Source: Chrysomallon squamiferum (Eukaryota > Animalia > Mollusca). From it: a stretch of 64,000 nt of DNA. The translations under genes were made by a program, and so were the position numbers. Below, one piece after another: positions 25,558 to 63,750 of this stretch (its first letter is position 1; the number at the start of each line of letters is the position of its first letter). The stretch covers positions 1,922,001 to 1,986,000 of the forward strand of contig CM022678.1 in NCBI GenBank assembly GCA_012295275.1, in the 5' to 3' direction. The notes under the pieces were generated by a model. It worked only from the letters and a program-made list of their open reading frames with translations, was not told where the DNA came from and searched no databases.

Positions 25558-28504
25558 AACCACACACACACAGACATACACACATAACCACACACACACC
25601 TACAGACATACACACACAAACACACACACATACACAGACATACACACACACACACACATACACACACAAACACACATACACAGGCATACACACACAAACA
25701 CACATACACATATACACAGACATACACACACACATACACACACACATACACATACATACATATACATACACATACACACACACAAACACCCATACATATA
25801 TATATACATACACATGTTCAAACACACACATATGCAAATGCATACAACCACACACATATACAGACACAAAAAGTGATACTTGCAATTATTATTTAAACTT
25901 TCAGACAGGAGAGTTCCAGTGGGATCAGGAAACTCAGGGATGGATTCTGGGAGCATTTTTCTATGGTTACATCGTGACTCAGATACCTGGAGGTTACCTG
26001 GCTGCCAGGTTTGGGGGGAAGCGACTGTTTGGTTTTGGGGTTCTGTCCACCTCCCTCCTCACTCTTCTCACCCCCCTAGCTGCTAGGAGTGGTCATGTTT
26101 GGGTTCTTATTCTGCTTCGAGTTCTCGAAGGACTTGGAGAGGTGACTTCATATCTATTATTTAGTTTATTATTAATTGTTATGCTGTCTATTTTATTGTG
26201 TTATCTTATAAGATGGTTTGTTTATTTTTTAAATTTAATTTATATTAATTTAAAAAAAAAAAAAATTAATTTATTACTTATATATATTATTTTTGTTATT
26301 ATTTTAGGTGGTGTTTTTTTTGTTTTTTTGTTTTATACAATTATCTTCTTTCTTTATCATTTATTTTTTATTTTATATTTATTTTTGTATTACTTTATTT
26401 TATATTTTATATTTATTTTTGTATTACTTTATTTTATATTTCACTTTACTTTATTACATTTGATTTTATTGTTTTACTTTACATTACATTATATTTTGTT
26501 ATATTAAGTTACGTTACATTACGTTACATTATATTATATTATATTATATTAAATTATGTTACATTACATTTTATTTTATTTTGTTAATTTTGTTTTGTTT
26601 CGCAGGGTGTCACTTTTCCGTCGATGCATGCGATGTGGGGAAACTGGGCTCCTGTATGGGAGCGTACAAAACTTGCAGGTTTCGCTTACGCAGGTTTGTA
26701 CAGGTTTGTACTTGTTCCTATAGGTTTTGTACAGGTTTTTATAGGTTCTGTACATGTTTATACAGGTTTTGCCTTGTTCATATAGGTTTGTATAGATTTA
26801 TACATGTTTTTGTAGCTTTATGTAGATTTACATTGGTTTCTAAAGGTTTATATCTAGGTTTATACAGGATGAAATACATGTATACAGGTTTATGTAGGTT
26901 TATTTAGGTTTCTGTAGGCTTATATGACTAGTGAAAGATACGACATTCAACGATATCAAATAAAACACTTCTTTTGTTCTCATTGCTTACAAGTTTTTAT
27001 TTTCAAAGTTTTTGACTTTACTCAGTCTACTCACATTTATACAGCATTACCCATGAAACATTTGCTTGTTCACAGAACAGTTTTATCTTTTATAATCTGT
27101 TTTAGATTTACAGATGTTGTTGTTACTGACAGAATATTTTCTCTTTCACAGAACGATTTTAAAAATTTCTGATTTCGTTATGATCAGAGAGGAATTGTTG
27201 CTGTTGTTGCCGACATTTTACGTGATTGTTCACAGAATGATTTTTAAACTGGGTTTTTCAGGGTCTCAGATAGGAACAGTTGTGTCAATGCCTCTGTCAG
27301 GTTTGTTGTGTGACTCGGACTTCCTGGGAGGTTGGCCCTCAGTGTTTTATGTTTTTGGTGAGTTACTTTGTCTTCTGAATTTTCATTTATTATTTTTGTA
27401 TTTGTTAAATTGAAAAAAAAAAAAAAAAATTTTTATCATTTGTTTTGTATCTTTAGAATGTAAGGTTTTGTAAATTGTAAAAAAGTTTTTTGATTAAAAG
27501 ATGAAAAAAGGTTAATTATAGAATAAATTTTATTTTATTTTATTTTGTTTATTTTACAAATAAATAAATAAATAAATAAATAAATATTGTATCAGAGAAA
27601 CAAACAAATAAATAAATACAAAAATGATACAAATTAATAAATAAATATATCAGTAAATATGTAATCAAATAAATAAATAAATGTAGAGGTATCATTTTTA
27701 ATTCTGTTTTAGTATTATGTTTTATACAATGTTTCAATGTATGTGTTCTGTCATGTTTTAAGTTATTTTGTAGATGTCCTGATTTATGTTTCCTTGTAGG
27801 TGCTATAGGTGTCATATATTATGTTATATTGTAGATGCTATAGGTGTCATGCTTTTTGTTATATCATAGGTACTGTAGGTGCTATGATTTATTATTTCTT
27901 GTAGGTGCTGTAGGTGCTATGATTTATTATTTCTTGTAGGTGCTGCAGGTGTGGTGTGGTTCGTATTCTGGATGTTGATAATTCACGAAACACCTTCAGA
28001 GCACCCAACAATAACAGAGAAAGAAAAGGATTTCATCGAAACATCCGTCGGGAAGAAGCAAGTAGGTGATAAGATAACATTCACTGTTAATAATCTTTAG
28101 CAGGATAATAATGTTCTGTATTACAAGTAATAATAATAATAGTGTAAATAACTGTACTAATACTGTTTAGTATTTTTATTATAATAATTAAATGATGGTG
28201 TCAGTGGTAATGATAAGAAAAACATAATAAAAAAGATAAAATGTTTTTTTTTTTTATGACAGTATTTTCGGACACCGTGGTTGAAGATGTTGAAGTGTCC
28301 TGCGCTGTGGGGCATTGCCGCTGCTCATGTCTCTGCAAACTGGCTCTTCTACATGACCTTGACCTGTTTACCCACCTACATGAAAAATATTCTCAAATTT
28401 GACATGAAATCAGTGAGTGGATAAAATGTTGATCGATTGTATCTGTGATTAAGTAAGTAAATAAAAAAATAAATTAAGAAATAAAAAAAAAAAATTAAAT
28501 AAAT

Positions 28505-28545
<41 letters not shown>

Positions 28546-29409
28546 AAATCAATCAATCAATCAAAAATAAAAAAAATAAAAAAAAATAAAATTAAAAAAA
28601 ATTAAATTAAATAATGAAAATTAACTAAAATTAAAATTAAAAAAAAAAAAAATAAAAATGAAATAAAACGAATAAAAAATGTACAAATTAACCATGATAT
28701 ACATAATTAAATTAATTAAAATCAATAAATAAATGTACATATATTCTTGATTATGAGTTGTAGTTTGTGAACTGGCTGTGGTAGTAGAATTGTTATTAAT
28801 ATTTGTATTAGTAGTGGTGGTGGTGTAGTAGTAGTTGTAGTAGAAATAGTACAATGTTGTAATAGTTTTAGTAAAACTGTAGTCATAAATTTTGGTTATT
28901 TTTTATATATATATTATTTCTTTCTTTCTTTCTTTCTTATTATTAAAACATTTTTTATTTATTTATTTATTTATTTTTTTATATTTTTTTTTTTTTTTTT
29001 TTTTTTTTCAATGGGTTTCTGTCAACGTTGCCGTACTTGGTGTTGTGGATGGTTCAGGTGGTTTCCAGCTACGTGGCTGACGTCATCAGAAGAAACAACT
29101 ACCTCTCCACTGAACACACAAGAAAGGTGATGAACACTGCAGGTGAGCTGTGTGTGTGTGTTTGTTTTATTTCTATTTATAATTTAGTCTGTTAATATTT
29201 TTGTTTATTTATTTTTTAGTTTTCATTTATTTTATTTCTGTTAATAAATTTACTTTATTTATTTATTTATTTGTTATTAATTCATTTTAATATATTTATT
29301 TTTCTATTTTTATTTATTAAATTCATTTTATTATATTTAGTTTACTGTTATTTTTTATTTTTGTGAGGGGTATTTATTTTATTTATTATTTATATTATTA
29401 TCCTTGTTG

Positions 29410-29465
<56 letters not shown>

Positions 29466-29483
29466 ATTACTATTACTATTATT

Positions 29484-29528
<45 letters not shown>

Positions 29529-31363
29529 AATTTTAGTTTATTAAATTAACACTTTCATTTTTTTTTCCAGGTCTTCTTCTCCCAGGGGTGTTTATTGTGG
29601 GTGCTGGTTACACTGGCTGTGACCACACCCTGGCTGTTGTGTTGCTCACTCTGTCTGTGGGGTGTGGTGGAATGACGATGCCTGGTTACGCAATCAACCA
29701 TCTTGACATCGCGCCAAAATTTGCAGGTTTTTTAATATTTTTAAAATTTTCATTTTAATCTCATTATATTTGGATTAAATGCTTCATTTAAGAAATTCTT
29801 TGCCTATCTGCTTGAATTGTTCCATCAAGTTTAGCTGTGAATGAGTTCACGTTCCAACCACTGTCAGTGATTATTATGATTTTTCCAGTTTATGGAAAGT
29901 CCTTATAAATTATACTTACTGCTTTCTAATGACAGTTTTATTTTACTTTCTTTTTTCTTTTTTTTTTCTTTTTTCTTTTTTTTTTTTTTTTTCTTTTTTT
30001 TTTTTTTTCTTTTTTCATATTTTATATTTAAAGGGAATGGGGTGTAAGGGGAGAGCATCCACTCAAGCCTGATTGTTTCTAATTCCAGTGTAACAGAGGT
30101 TGTAGTATGTGTACTTGTGGGAAGGTTTAAATAAATGATTTCTTACTGCTAGCTGAAAAGAGTAACACACAAAGTGTTAAAAGCAGGTTTACTCTTTCTT
30201 CGTCTCATGAGTTTTTAGTCATTTTTCTGTCTATCCTTCTTTCCTTCCATCATTCCTTCTTTCTTTCCTTTTCTCCTTTCTTCTTTTGTTCTTTCCTTTC
30301 TTTTTACTTACCTTCTTTGCTTCCTTCTTAAATACAAATTACCGTAAATTCTATTGCATCTGCTAATAATTAAAAATAAAAAAAAGTTCTGTTCATTTAC
30401 TGTTCAGCTTATTCTGAACAAAACTGTAACATTAAAAAGTATTTTTGTTATTTTTCTGTCTTTTCAGTGTTGGTTAATAATTAACTACCAGTTATTTTTC
30501 CTTGTAGCAGTGCATTTTGTTTATAAATAAATGTTTTTTTCATTTTGTTTCTTGTTTTTTGACAGGTGTTTTGTTTGGTATCACTAATGCCTTGGCAACC
30601 ATTCCTGGATTTTTGGCTCCAATAGTAGTGGGAATTCTTACTAATAATAATGTAATTATTTTTATTTACTGCTTGTGTGATGTTGTTACTACTACTACTA
30701 CTACTACAACTTGTACTACTTGTACTGCTATCACTGCAACTATTATTATAATACATCATCATCATCATCATCTTCATCATTATTATTACTACTACTACTT
30801 CTACTATTACCACTATTGCTTTTGCTACTAATACTGCTACTACTAATAACTAATACTATTATTATTATTATCATCATTATTATTATTATTACTATTACTA
30901 CTACTACTACTACTATAACTGCTATTACTATTACTATTATTATTATTAATGTTTTCGTTATTATTTCTATTATTATTAATGTCTTTACTATTATTATTAT
31001 TATTATTATTATTATTACTCCTACGATTATAATTACTATTATTATTTTTATTTATGATGATTATTGTTATTTTTATTGTTGTTGTTGTTGTTGTTGTTTT
31101 TGTTGTTGTTTTTGTTGTTGTAGTTGATGTAGTAGTAGTAGTAGTTGTTGTAGGAGTTGTTGTTGTTGTTGTTGCAGGAAACCAGTTCCCAGTGGAGGAT
31201 AATATTTGACATGTCAGGTGGGTTCATGTTGGTTGGTTCCTTTCTCTTTGTTCTTCTGGCTCGTGGTACAGAAATGTCGTGGGCGAGACTTGAACCCAGA
31301 ACTGGAAGTTGGACTCAGGTGATCCCAGAACCAGACGACAGCATTCAGAAAACACGTTCCTGA
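24840..31363 (+). CDS. SLC17A5: SLC17 family (sialin-like) MFS anion transporter 1, about 507 aa, 11 exons; one-to-one orthology unproven
   Basis: Exons 24840-24918, 25269-25459, 25905-26141, 26606-26693, 27262-27357, 27940-28061, 28263-28412, 29010-29142, 29571-29726, 30566-30651, 31178-31363; total 1524 nt, in frame. SLC17 motifs: [74 protein letters not shown]. The exon 8 acceptor lacks AG in this sequence. Confidence 0.93.
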
Positions 31364-34412: not shown

Positions 34413-50445
<16,033 letters not shown>

Positions 50446-51204
50446 GAGTGCCCGCAATCCGCAGTATGCAGGTGACCCGATAAAAGAGTTCGCGTGACGT
50501 CTGAGAACGTGACTACGTCATTGTTTGACAAAAACGTTGCGAGAAAGTGTGGTGAAAATGTGATGTCGTTGAAATATATATATTTTTTTTTTTTTTTTTT
50601 TTGTAGAATGGCTTGAGAGAAAGATAAGTTCGTGGAATCTGATATATTCTCAATTTATTATCAGACCCGTTCCGATAACACTGTTTTATGTGATCACGTG
50701 ATTAACTCATATTATTTTTGTAAGGAAAAAAAACAAAAAACACATTATTTATAATATGTTTTATAATGTAAAATGATATTGCTACATTTTCAGACACATT
50801 CCTAGAAAATTACAATTTTAATAAAAGTTTCATATTAATTGAAACATTTTCCTAGAAAAATAGAGCTTCTGAGAAAATGTATGTTACGATGATACGATAT
50901 GTTACAATGTAAAATATTCTAAGAATCTGATGTGTTGGCACTGTCTGATCAGAAAACGTGATATGAGAGAATGAACTGATATTATGAATAGTGCAGAAAG
51001 TACTCTGATAAAACGATAGATAGGTAATTATATCATATCAAAAATGTTGGTCATGTCAGAGGGGGAATAACTCGCGATGACCTCTGTATTAAGTAACATT
51101 ACATCTTAGCGTAAAATCGTGAAATGTTTTCAAGTTAAAAAAAAATATTTAAAAAAAAGTGTCAGTTCCACAGAAAATAAGGTAACAATTGTACTGACAT
51201 TTTT

Positions 51205-52281: not shown

Positions 52282-52369
52282 TGCCCCAAGTGAGGATCGA
52301 ACTCACGACCTTCAGATATCTCTGTTTGTGATTATGAGACTGACGCGCTACCTACTGCGCTATCGAGGC
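52282..52369 (-). tRNA. tRNA-Met-CAT: Elongator tRNA-Met(CAT) with 15-nt intron (C67T variant, G6:U67 wobble)
   Basis: As 45110-45197 with one acceptor-stem substitution; T6 terminator. Confidence 0.93.
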
Positions 52370-52810: not shown

Positions 52811-52904
52811 TGCCCCGAGTGAGGATCGAACTCACGACCTTCAGATATCTCTGTTTTACTTTGTGATTATGAGACTGACGCGCTACCTACTGCGCTATCG
52901 AGGC
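52811..52904 (-). tRNA. tRNA-Met-CAT: Elongator tRNA-Met(CAT) with 21-nt intron
   Basis: Identical to 45602-45695. Confidence 0.95.
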
Positions 52905-54761: not shown

Positions 54762-55630
54762 CAACAACAACAATAATAATAATAATAATAATAATAACAA
54801 TAATAATAATAATAATAACGATGATGATGATGATGATGATATCTAGAATATACAGTGAGTGAAAACAAATACCTTTCTTGTTCTGTTATCTGGCTTGTTA
54901 GTGAACACGTGTGACAGCTGCTGCGAGGTCACGTGACGTTTTATCTCTGGCACGCGGATCTGACACCGTCTGCTTCTCACACCTCGATTCAAAGACCTCC
55001 TAATTTGTTTGTTTGTTTTGTTTGTTTTGTTTTTATGCTTATTTGTTTCTCTGTTTTGTTTTATTTTATTTTTATTTTTATCTTTATTTGTTTTGCTTTG
55101 CTTTGTTTTATTTTATTTTATTTTATTTGTTTGTTTGTTTTATTTATTTGTTTAGTTTATTTATTTGTTTGTTTAGTTTATTTATTTGTTTGTTTGTTTG
55201 TTTTATTTATTTGTTTGTTTGTTTGTTTAGTTTATTTGTTTGTTTGTTTTGTTTGTTTGTTTTTTTGTTTATTTATGGACTCTATATATCTAGAGAGAAT
55301 AATAATTTGTTCTGAGAAAATGTATTGAATTATTTTGATAAATTTTGTTTTTATTATTAATATGACTATAAATTAATACGTTTCTGTAAAGTCATATACG
55401 ATGGTCATATAAACACATTAACAACAACTACTACCACTATAGAGATATATAAATCGTGATGTCATCAGTTCATGATTAAAACTTCAGTAACACGATGTTA
55501 TAACTTCACCCATTTCAAATAAATAAATAAATGATTAAAATTTTAAAATAATTTAAAAAAAATACATAAACAAATTTAAAAATAATAATAATAATAATAA
55601 TAAATAAAAAAAATAAAAATAAAATATTGA

Positions 55631-55724
55631 TGCCCCGAGTGAGGATCGAACTCACGACCTTCAGATATCTCTGTTTTACTTTGTGATTATGAGACTGACG
55701 CGCTACCTACTGCGCTATCGAGGC
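55631..55724 (-). tRNA. tRNA-Met-CAT: Elongator tRNA-Met(CAT) with 21-nt intron, between the two peptide genes
   Basis: Identical to 52811-52904; TTTT downstream. Confidence 0.95.
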
Positions 55725-55995
55725 TACACAAGTCAAACGTTCGGTTGACATAGTAACCAAAAATAAGAGTACAGTGAAATATCTGATTAATTTAAAGACT
55801 GGAAGAACATAAAACAATTTGGAAAACACAAGTATTATTAAAAACCAGAAAACGTTTCGAAAACGAGATCGTCAAAGGATGTGCATAGTTACGAGTACAT
55901 GTACTATAAATAAGTGAAAACACAACAAAACAAAACAAAAACGTGTTCAGAAACTAAATTCTTTATTTCTTGTTGTAACTGTTCATTGCAGACAT

Positions 55996-57002
55996 CTAGA
56001 GCGCCTCTTCAGCAACTACAAAATAAAGTTTAATAATTTTATATATACACACGTACACACACACACACATACACACGTACACACACACATACATACACAC
56101 ACACATATACACACACACACATACACACACACACACGTACACACACACATACACACGTACATACACACACATACACACGTTCACACACACACACGTACAC
56201 ACACACACACACACACATACACACATATATATTTACATAGGTACAAACACACATACATACATACACATACATACACACACACACGTACCTGCACACACAC
56301 ATATATACATACATACATACATACACATAACACATATATAGACATACTTACATACACACACACACACACACTACTACATACATACACACGCACACCTATA
56401 TAGACATACATATATACACACACACATATATATTTACATACGTACACACATACATACATACACACACATCTATCTACATACATTGTCTACTAGCTTTACA
56501 ATACTTTGCTGCAACTGCTGTTACTACGACCTCTATTGCTACTACTACAGCTCCTATAATTACTACACTCACTACCGCTACTACTATTATTACATTTACT
56601 ACTACTATAACCACTGCTGCTACTACTACTACTGTTGCTGATGCTACTACTACTACTACTGCTACTGCTACTACTACTACTACTATTACTGCTTCTATTA
56701 CTATTACTACTATTACTATTAATACTACTATTACTACTACTACTGCTGATGCTACTACTATTACTACTACTACTACTAATATTACTACTACTACTACTAC
56801 TATTACTACTACTACTACTACTATTACAACTACTACTATTACTACTACTACTACTACTACGACTATGACTATTATTATTTTTGCTGCCGTGGTAACTACT
56901 ATTATCTAATTCAGAATGTGACACAAACACAAACAGATACGCGCGCGCTCTCAGAAACACACACATGTACACACACGTACGCACACACACACACACACAA
57001 AA

Positions 57003-57033
<31 letters not shown>

Positions 57034-58752
57034 GAGTTAAACCACTGTCTAACAAAGACGTTTTTGTACACAAAAGCTACTCTACATAAAAATGTTTGAA
57101 GCTGTTTTTTTACTTACGATCATGCAGATCTCTTAAGTTTCTCTCAAACCGCTGAACTGGAATGCGTTCAACTGAAAAAGTAAATAAATAAATAAATAAA
57201 TATACAGTAATGAAAAATTTTGAAAGATATTAAATTTGTAGATATCAGGATGTTGGCCTGTTTTGAGATTACGAAGTTAACGCAAGAGTTTATTTTTATT
57301 TTATTTATTTTATTTTATTTCACCGAGACACACGGAAGGGAGAGTACTCTTAGTTACATTTACAGAGTTGTCTCCCTTTGGTACTTTTTTCTATTTTTTT
57401 AGTTACTTTCACCGTTATTTAATTTGCGTTTACAGAATTTTCTCTCTCACTGAAGTTTACGCAGAGTTATCTGAAGTACGATTACAGAGTTGTCTTTCTT
57501 AGTTATGTTTAACCAGTTTTGGACGGATGAATGTTTCAGAATCTCAGTGATGTTTAGGCATAAAAGAATAAAATTGTAACACAGTCACATATCATCCATA
57601 TTAGTGCGAGTTATCTATTTATTTAGCTATCTCTGTGTCTATATGTCTACCTATCTATCTATCTATCTACCTATATATATATATATATGTCTATCTATCT
57701 ACCTATTTATATATCTATCTATGGATCTATCTGTCAGTCTATCTGTTTACTCATTTATTTATCTATCTAGCTATTAAATATTTACTGTTTATTTATTTAT
57801 ATATTTTGTTTATGTATTTACCATTCTGTTAAATATCTATTGTTTTACCGTTCCACATGTGTCTCTTTATTCATCTGTCATACTTACACGATGAAGACAT
57901 CTCTTCAAACAGGTCACGTGCATCGCGCTCTCCAATCGCCTTGCTGAGCTCATCTACGTCAATGTGTCCGTCATTGTTCAGATCGAGGCTGGTGATGTCT
58001 CGTTTTCCGCTTCTCTGCTTGACGTATTCCCATATCTTTTTCACCGTGTTCCAGACTGCGGAACACAGAAACAGAAAACAAAGTCAGAAAAACCAATTTA
58101 AAAATTCAGATGTTGAAAAATGCCGATTTTTGTTTAATATCTTTCTCTCTCTCTCTTTATTTATCTCTTTCTGTCTTCTTCTGTCGTTTTCTCTGCGTAT
58201 CTATCTATCTAAGTATGTATCTAAGTATGTATGTATCTATCTATCTATTTATCTATTTATCTATCAGTCTATCTACTACTCTATCTATCTATCTGTCTAG
58301 CTATCAGTCTGTCTATCTATCTGGCTGTCTATCTCTTTCTATATATTTGTATTTTTGGATGTCTTTGTATCTATCTATATTTTAAACACAGAGACACACA
58401 CACAGATACACACACACACACTACACACAGACTCAGAGACTCACACACAGACGCACACACACACACAGACACACGCACGCACACACACTACACACAGACA
58501 CACACACACACTACACACACACAGACACACACACGCACACAGACACACACACACACATACACACACACACACAGTTTATTTTCGTGCTGTCAGACCCGCC
58601 CCGTGTTTCTCACCTTTGACGATCCTCGTCACTGTTCTGCCCACGCGTTTCACCGCGTTCTTCACGCGATTCCAGAACCGACGTCCTCGCCACGCGTCCA
58701 CGTCCTGAACAACCAGCAACGTCACCAGCAGGAAGACGACGGCAAGTTTCAT
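55996..58752 (-). CDS. Secreted peptide precursor B (126 aa): SP, cationic amphipathic peptide, GKR, acidic EF-hand propiece; candidate antimicrobial/cytolytic peptide
   Basis: Exons 58752-58614, 58055-57888, 57171-57118 and 56015-55996; all introns phase 1 with strong sites (gtgaga, gtaagt, gtaagt); 381 nt. Protein: MKLAVVFLLVTLLVVQDVDA-WRGRRFWNRVKNAVKRVGRTVTRIVKVWNTVKKIWEYVKQRS-GKR-DITSLDLNNDGHIDVDELSKAIGERDARDLFEEMSSSFERIPVQRFERNLRDLHDLAEEAL*. Confidence 0.9.
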
Positions 58753-59391: not shown

Positions 59392-59494
59392 CTTCAGTTG
59401 TTTCAGAACTCAACAAAAACAGTCAGAGAGAAACGAAATTTGATCAGCTGCTGATTTCTGTTTCAGCAAACGATTCTTTTAAAGTCTGCTGGTG
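59392..59494 (-). promoter_or_regulatory. Putative core promoter and non-coding exon 1 of peptide gene B
   Basis: Minus strand: TTTAAAA (about 59483-59477), then tcagc about 25-30 nt downstream, about 60 nt of leader and donor GAAG|gtaaat at 59392/59391. The coding exon begins cag|ATG, so an upstream exon is required. Confidence 0.55.

Positions 59495-63536: not shown

Positions 63537-63750
<214 letters not shown>

Follow-up and report, generated by a model that had tools for sequence, protein, structure and literature searches.

A spliced molluscan gene encodes a likely linear helical defence peptide with an EF-hand tail

The window (the whole stretch of 64,000 nucleotides analysed here) is AT-rich, microsatellite-laden animal DNA, and one small gene on its minus strand raises the question why the precursor of a short cationic peptide should end in an EF-hand module. 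A preliminary description made from the letters alone had read this gene as encoding an amidated, cysteine-free antimicrobial peptide (AMP), here called the cargo. Its acidic EF-hand tail was thought to act as a charge-complementary, perhaps Ca2+-dependent, intramolecular inhibitor or chaperone. The points at issue are therefore whether the gene is real, to what family it belongs, and whether tail and cargo work together.

The gene is genuine and spliced. Its four coding exons add up to 381 bases and encode 126 aa with a single stop, and all three coding introns are GT-AG introns in phase 1. Its parts, and a copy of one of them, lie as follows:

63637-63750: copy of the 5′ non-coding exon and its donor, 114 bases, 99% identical by blastn
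59392..59490, minus strand: 5′ non-coding exon with donor at 59392, its upstream end left undefined; joint seen in a contig of run X1
58752-58614, minus strand: coding exon 1, 139 bases; signal and cargo residues 1-26, the ATG being its first codon
58693..58752, minus strand: signal peptide, 20 aa, 80% identical to the signal of the relative P0078
58009..58692, minus strand: the 42-aa cargo, amphipathic and cationic (net +13); intron 1 interrupts it, leaving 57% in exon 1
58055-57888, minus strand: coding exon 2, 168 bases; end of the cargo, Gly-Lys-Arg, EF loop 1 and the invariant R[ED]ARD helix
58000..58008, minus strand: Gly-Lys-Arg, conserved across the family; likely convertase site and amide donor
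57949..57984, minus strand: loop 1 of the EF-hand (residues 71-82), canonical at each of its six ligand positions
57171-57118, minus strand: coding exon 3, 54 bases; remnant of loop 2 and exiting helix
56015-55996, minus strand: coding exon 4, 20 bases including the stop, predicted from canonical signals, frame and relatives
55962-55967, minus strand: AATAAA, about 30 bases downstream of coding exon 4

The four-coding-exon gene first proposed is borne out as one 126-aa frame by spliced public contigs, which show three of the four splice joints, including that of the 5′ non-coding exon, a fifth exon beyond the original four. This exon is joined to the ATG exon in a contig of run X1, where the 11 letters past the ATG exon fit the donor at 59392 and the copy at 63648 equally well. 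Contigs from X1 and X3 run from exon 1 into exon 2, and one from X2 runs from exon 2 into exon 3. The last joint, between exons 3 and 4, is predicted from canonical signals, the open frame and likeness to the C-terminus of the relatives. Four runs (X1-X4) were compared with two short stretches, and loose contig ends were matched to the window. Since X2 and X3 come from one sample, splicing was seen in two samples from two studies; the runs carry no RNA label on record, but the joints are exact nonetheless. In run X4 a contig covering exon 1 is unspliced and exon 2 has no contig; contig depths are unfit for ranking expression. An Arg-to-Lys variant at cargo residue 23 (precursor residue 43) occurs in X3 and X4, and a silent variant in X1 and X4. 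Spliced contigs, the intact frame and a relative with 70% identity rule out a chance ORF or a pseudogene.

Two irregularities were seen at the locus. In the X2 contig the first 15 bases of exon 3 (57157-57171) are doubled, giving an in-frame repeat of five residues where the window has one copy; this may be an allele or an assembly artefact (one contig, depth 3.3). The copy at 63637-63750 is followed by a similar GA-repeat intron start, with no coding exon behind it, and may have arisen by partial tandem duplication or serve as another first exon. No second copy with an EF exon was found within the 64-kb window.

All residue and charge counts given earlier for signal, cargo, Gly-Lys-Arg, tail and canonical loop were reproduced; the signal cleavage point was placed from the pattern of small residues and the family alignment. 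The cargo contains 8 R, 6 K, 1 E and 4 W, lacks Cys and Pro, and presents the cationic amphipathic helix of linear α-helical AMPs (net +13; moment 0.71). The hydrophobic moment of its five-heptad core, 0.71 at 104 degrees, was reached by none of 20,000 shuffles, and that of the entire 42-mer by 3 of 2,000. In amidated form the 42-mer has a calculated mass of about 5,285 Da. Judged from these sequence features, the precursor is very probably cut at Lys-Arg and amidated, and the cargo is probably antimicrobial. The tail (61 aa; 17 D/E, 7 K/R; net −10) carries a canonical 12-residue EF-hand loop at residues 71-82, the one loop found in the window protein by a PROSITE-type pattern. The Pfam EF-hand match of the window exon falls below the cut-off (22.8 bits versus 25.9; E 5.9e-5), that of the relative P0079 lies above the curated cut-off, and coding exon 3 alone scored E 0.11 against the family profile. 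No Pfam AMP family matched.

A search with the tail had been proposed as a way to find families with variable N-terminal cargo. By sequence, the gene is a member of an uncharacterised family with cargos of 18-44 aa, and its closest named relatives come from the vent snail Gigantopelta aegis. The nearest, P0078, is 70% identical over 126 aa, and public annotation calls the members 'uncharacterized' or 'oncomodulin-like'. An exhaustive HMMER search with exon 2 gave 66 matches, of which five short ones (P0001, P0002, P0003, P0014, P0034; three of them uncharacterised G. aegis proteins) span the basic site and the loop; the other 61 were read as general EF-hand proteins by length and matched stretch. 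Two profile rounds, retaining 9 of 2,916 and then 20 of 5,089 candidates, collected 13 G. aegis proteins from 12 genes, four single-exon fragments and three weak matches (E 0.25 or worse), one of which proved on inspection to be a general EF-hand protein. Ten of the G. aegis genes lie on one 47.5 Mb record and two on one 120.6 Mb record (equal length being taken to mean the same record), and nine more fragments form another cluster, in which a single contig carries several members.

Searches of limited sensitivity returned no named matches from species other than G. aegis. A word-seeded protein search of exon 2 against longer proteins scored none of seven candidates and is weak, because relatives exist yet were missed. 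A scan of metagenome contigs (6 of 64 parts) gave 13 loci, all general EF-hand genes and none with the family motif, and the 67 matches of a PDB sequence search were likewise all general EF-hand. In the ESM Atlas, P0034 found leads under 0.9 only, including several clusters of 133-145 aa that are mostly molluscan, and the signal plus cargo of P0078 found no usable match.

The AMP-type precursor layout first described for the window gene is kept across the 12-gene G. aegis family, every gene having (a signal,) a cationic cargo, a basic site and an EF-hand tail; the signal is missing from the P0002 model. In a set of 13 proteins (the window protein and the 12 G. aegis genes, isoform P0084 left out), the basic site stands exactly five residues before EF loop 1 in every case (KR in 12, GR in one), and Gly precedes it in all except P0080. 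The D, N, G, D and E positions of loop 1 are invariant in 15 of 15 aligned relatives, which also share the R[ED]ARD motif, the most conserved part of the tail. A tree of the first 52 tail residues separates long- and short-cargo groups at 100/100. The seven long-cargo members, the window gene included, have cargos of 34-44 aa at +11 to +13, each with a moment reached by at most 3 of 1,000 shuffles. None of them keeps loop 2, which agrees with the degenerate second helix-loop-helix noted at the outset. The six short cargos (18-31 aa, +4 to +10) include one that is clearly amphipathic (6 of 1,000 shuffles; 80-872 for the others), and four of the six members keep loop 2. Loop 2 follows loop 1 by 29 residues in these four, by 33-38 in P0088 and by 36 in troponin C. 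With only one short cargo clearly amphipathic and no Gly before the site in P0080, AMP-like character is not uniform across the family.

We counted for the AMP reading that this is a clustered multigene family with cargos of 18-44 aa and tails that are on average more conserved than the cargo. Mean identity is 0.55 for the tail and 0.37 for the cargo (28 pairs of eight sequences, P0002 left out), the closest pair being reversed at 0.63 and 0.74, respectively. In the available text on myticalins the same pattern is described, with clustered genes and a cargo less conserved than the tail (PMC5577615, PMC12294457). A single Cys near the C-terminus occurs in the cargos of P0001, P0075, P0076 and the P0014 cluster. 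By analogy with halocidin or centrocins, as the accessible part of a review presents them, these cargos could form disulfide-linked dimers (PMC10608444).

An amidated cargo need not be a defence peptide, and the precursor might instead release a neuropeptide or hormone, which we consider very unlikely. The amide signal would suit such a role, nucleobindin-2/nesfatin is a signalling-peptide precursor with an EF-hand, and Bogdanov et al. reportedly described in 1998 a snail gene for a precursor of putative neuropeptides with an EF-hand region. The existence of such a snail precursor is known from its title (PMC11359391, PMC8398477). However, no conserved C-terminal motif precedes the Gly, and cargos of 18-44 aa and net +4 to +13, with strict heptads in the long subfamily, are unlike receptor ligands. 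A structural role seems hardly likely at all; here the heptad cargos would form coiled-coil bundles as part of mucus or of the matrix of shell or scale, with Ca2+ or another metal bound by the tail. The 104-degree period is close to that of a coiled-coil heptad and mollusc shell matrices contain secreted EF-hand proteins, but a net charge of +13 would disfavour self-bundling, and the conserved signals for cutting and amidation are in keeping with a peptide that is set free. Overall, we lean towards a new family of host-defence peptides that are linear and amidated and whose tail, built like a calmodulin lobe, acts as a chaperone.

Several known defence peptides resemble such precursors. The tunicate styelins and clavanins have anionic C-terminal extensions, in which we know of no EF-hand. 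Together with cecropin-like helices they are linear, amidated and helical peptides of 23-32 aa, according to the accessible review text (PMC10608444), and none of these AMPs gave a sequence match in Pfam or ESM Atlas searches. Mytimycin of Mytilus, in the portion of the source available, shares a signal, a defence peptide, a basic site and, behind it, an anionic C-terminal tail with an EF-hand pair, the role of which is stated to be unknown (PMC8004829). Its antifungal cargo is Cys-rich, with about 12 Cys against none in the window cargo and at most one in all 13 family cargos. Mytimycin A1, counted by eye from the same portion, lacks Gly before the site and has 17 residues between site and loop 1 and loops 35 apart, whereas the family usually has the Gly, five residues, and loops 29 apart or loop 2 lost. 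Membership of the mytimycins was rejected, the mature peptide not being cysteine-rich; mytimycin was absent among the matches of the HMMER and profile searches, themselves limited, and homology of the two tails beyond the general EF-hand fold is no more than a possibility.

The myticalins and modiocalins of the Mytilidae, as far as the available text describes them, share a linear cationic cargo (23-42 aa), an anionic tail, a Lys-Arg site often with Gly, a clustered multigene family, a 5′ non-coding exon and a phase-1 intron (PMC5577615, PMC12294457). They differ in a cargo that is mostly Pro/Arg-rich, whereas that of the window has no Pro, and in a tail described there as low-complexity, with no mention of the EF-hand module seen here. 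Their three exons have one coding intron, after the dibasic site, in the part of the report seen (PMC5577615); the window gene has three coding introns, the first within the cargo, and its signal differs by eye from the myticalin consensus as available. Exon plan, EF-hand tail and signal consensus led us to reject myticalin membership despite the common precursor layout. The family is neither a mytimycin nor a myticalin family but probably works like them. The available text on Equinin B of Actinia equina describes a six-Cys AMP of weak activity (0.25 mg/mL) that shares a signal, a cationic AMP and a prodomain (PMC11051070). Its nearest homologue (147 aa) is annotated there with EF-hand domains, and Equinin B's own prodomain probably carries an EF-hand, too.

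Whether tail and cargo interact was approached with AlphaFold models. As a stand-in for the window protein we used P0078 minus its signal (11 sequences; pLDDT 76, pTM 0.54), which was modelled as a helix spanning residues 3-40 and a compact EF-hand pair, with an open turn where the basic site lies. Among 48,161 chains 6hr1 matched best (Z 8.0, rmsd 2.1, 72 residues, model residues 25-96), followed by 6xyr, CDPK regulatory domains, Case-16 and GCaMPs. These chains carry a target helix linked to a lobe of the calmodulin type, and 6hr1 and 6xyr are an MLCK calmodulin-binding peptide fused to calmodulin. For plain lobes, at Z about 5, the alignment began no earlier than model residue 39-43. A second comparison, with 957 chains, gave the same order (CDPK 3o4y, Z 8.2, rmsd 3.0, 88 residues), and Foldseek against the PDB gave no match at E 0.001 or better. 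In this model, cargo residues about 25-40 would lie in the lobe cleft much as a calmodulin target does, and Lys-Arg would align with residues 13-14 of calmodulin, within the helix that leads into the first EF-hand (model 43-102 mapped onto chain 13-80). The predicted geometry resembles calmodulin with its MLCK peptide, or the CDPK junction helix with its calmodulin-like domain, in seating a basic, Trp-bearing amphipathic helix in the cleft of an EF-hand pair. Unlike those, it involves one lobe, secretion, shortened helices and a likely convertase site between tail and target.

A Z of about 8 is borderline, the level at which the comparison tool warns of a common arrangement, and AlphaFold might seat any amphipathic helix in the cleft. 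Models of both relatives, P0078 and P0034, match calmodulin-type lobes at Z 5-8, but that of the short-cargo P0034 (pLDDT 60, signal included) matches a lobe only, over residues 40-104, and shows no docked cargo. A two-chain prediction of P0078 cargo and tail with Ca2+ scored 0.16 against a mark of 0.34 and favours neither reading. The intramolecular grip proposed earlier thus finds support in the P0078 model and none in the low-confidence P0034 model, and we regard it as evenly balanced. Charge complementarity as such, the other half of that proposal, found no support: cargo and tail charge do not co-vary (rho −0.04, p 0.90, n = 13). The long/short tree is a single split and therefore cannot show co-evolution.

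These results bear on a rather unlikely alternative in which the cargo is defensive and the tail does not grip it, serving instead in sorting, Ca2+-dependent granule packing, bulk charge shielding or a job of its own after the cut. The lack of charge co-variation and of docking in the P0034 model would agree with this, as would the R[ED]ARD motif, the most conserved in the tail, which has no assigned partner, and the mytimycin EF-hand, whose role the available text gives as unknown (PMC8004829). Set against this, the fixed five-residue spacing between site and loop, together with the P0078 pose, points to structural coupling of tail and cargo. Marine AMP prodomains are also presented as neutralising chaperones in the accessible part of a review (PMC10608444).

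Under the chaperone-tail reading that we favour, the precursor would enter the secretory pathway and the tail, with Ca2+ bound in loop 1, would adopt the fold of a single calmodulin lobe. Its cleft would hold the C-terminal half of the cargo, shielding hydrophobic face and charge and keeping it harmless in the secretory pathway. A convertase would then cut at Lys-Arg, and a carboxypeptidase and PAM would leave the amide, a pathway described for myticalins in the available text (PMC12294457); the freed helix would attack microbial membranes. The likely release step would be the cut itself, which would untether the cargo and shorten the lobe's first helix because the basic site is part of the helix that leads into the first EF-hand.

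For the Ca2+ at loop 1, a structural role is more likely than that of a switch. A calcium-gated tail, as the preliminary description envisaged, would grip the cargo in one Ca2+ state only, and a change in Ca2+ on secretion would arm or disarm the peptide. This is unlikely in our estimate, even though all 15 aligned relatives keep the ligands of loop 1 unchanged and the predicted pose resembles Ca2+-calmodulin/target and CDPK complexes. All seven long-cargo members, the window gene among them, have lost loop 2, and the subfamily with the highest cargo charge is the one missing one of its two loops. The secretory lumen, seawater and haemolymph are all rich in Ca2+; because lumen and outside both are, a Ca2+ switch would need a low-affinity, millimolar site. 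Equally improbable, we think, is a self-sheathing one-lobe calmodulin with its own target, whose tail would clamp a lytic helix, with the cut site in the first helix and the Ca2+ of the single loop timing release.

The family is new and likely consists of linear helical defence peptides with an EF-hand tail, the tail type itself being already known on Cys-rich cargo. The novelty claimed at the outset stands for the Cys-free pairing, of which no description was found in a literature search that covered subscription papers thinly; it does not extend to the tail, since mytimycin has been described with an EF-hand tail after a dibasic site, and a homologue of Equinin B with an EF-hand annotation has been reported. 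The literature search likewise found no description of this family, although the supplements of vent-snail genome papers may list these genes. Two reviews of marine invertebrate AMPs make no mention of EF-hands in their accessible text (PMC10608444, PMC12466427), and linear helical AMPs are scarce in molluscs according to the available part of a further paper (PMC5577615).

The family offers natural long cationic helices from a seawater animal. With its 42-aa Cys-free cargo and 61-aa tail, the gene makes a simple system for the role of the EF-hand tail in mytimycin-type precursors, and the family supplies one-loop and two-loop tails for comparison. Gigantopelta aegis bears bacterial symbionts, and the expanded vent-snail family, if it is indeed defensive, could help police them. 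If the self-sheathing mechanism were true, EF-hand tails, counting those of mytimycin and the Equinin B homologue, would be a class of AMP prodomain that recurs in molluscs and cnidarians and has gone unrecognised, comparable to BRICHOS in polychaetes.

Just downstream of the gene, also on the minus strand, a second small candidate gene (54503-53480) would have three exons with phase-1 GT-AG introns and encode 71 aa. It has a putative non-coding exon (donor near 54872), and the exon that follows opens directly with the ATG, an arrangement shared with the main gene. Its product has a signal-like start, a short cationic Trp/Arg stretch and an acidic tail with no EF loop; likeness to the family profile was not significant (domain E 0.42). 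Five near-identical CAT-anticodon tRNA genes lie on the minus strand (45110-45197, 45602-45695, 52282-52369, 52811-52904 and 55631-55724). Each has a 15- or 21-base insert after the anticodon, and we read them as intron-bearing tRNA-Met; ARAGORN classed two as tRNA-SeC and did not detect the other three. In animals, tRNA-Met genes seldom have introns. Within positions 59-21636 a multi-exon gene recurs in several copies, both tandem and inverted; by eye, its exons resemble immunoglobulin-type domains. On the plus strand, at about 25800-31000 and 43800-50500, exons resemble by eye those of two transporter genes, which we take to be of the sialin/SLC17 type.
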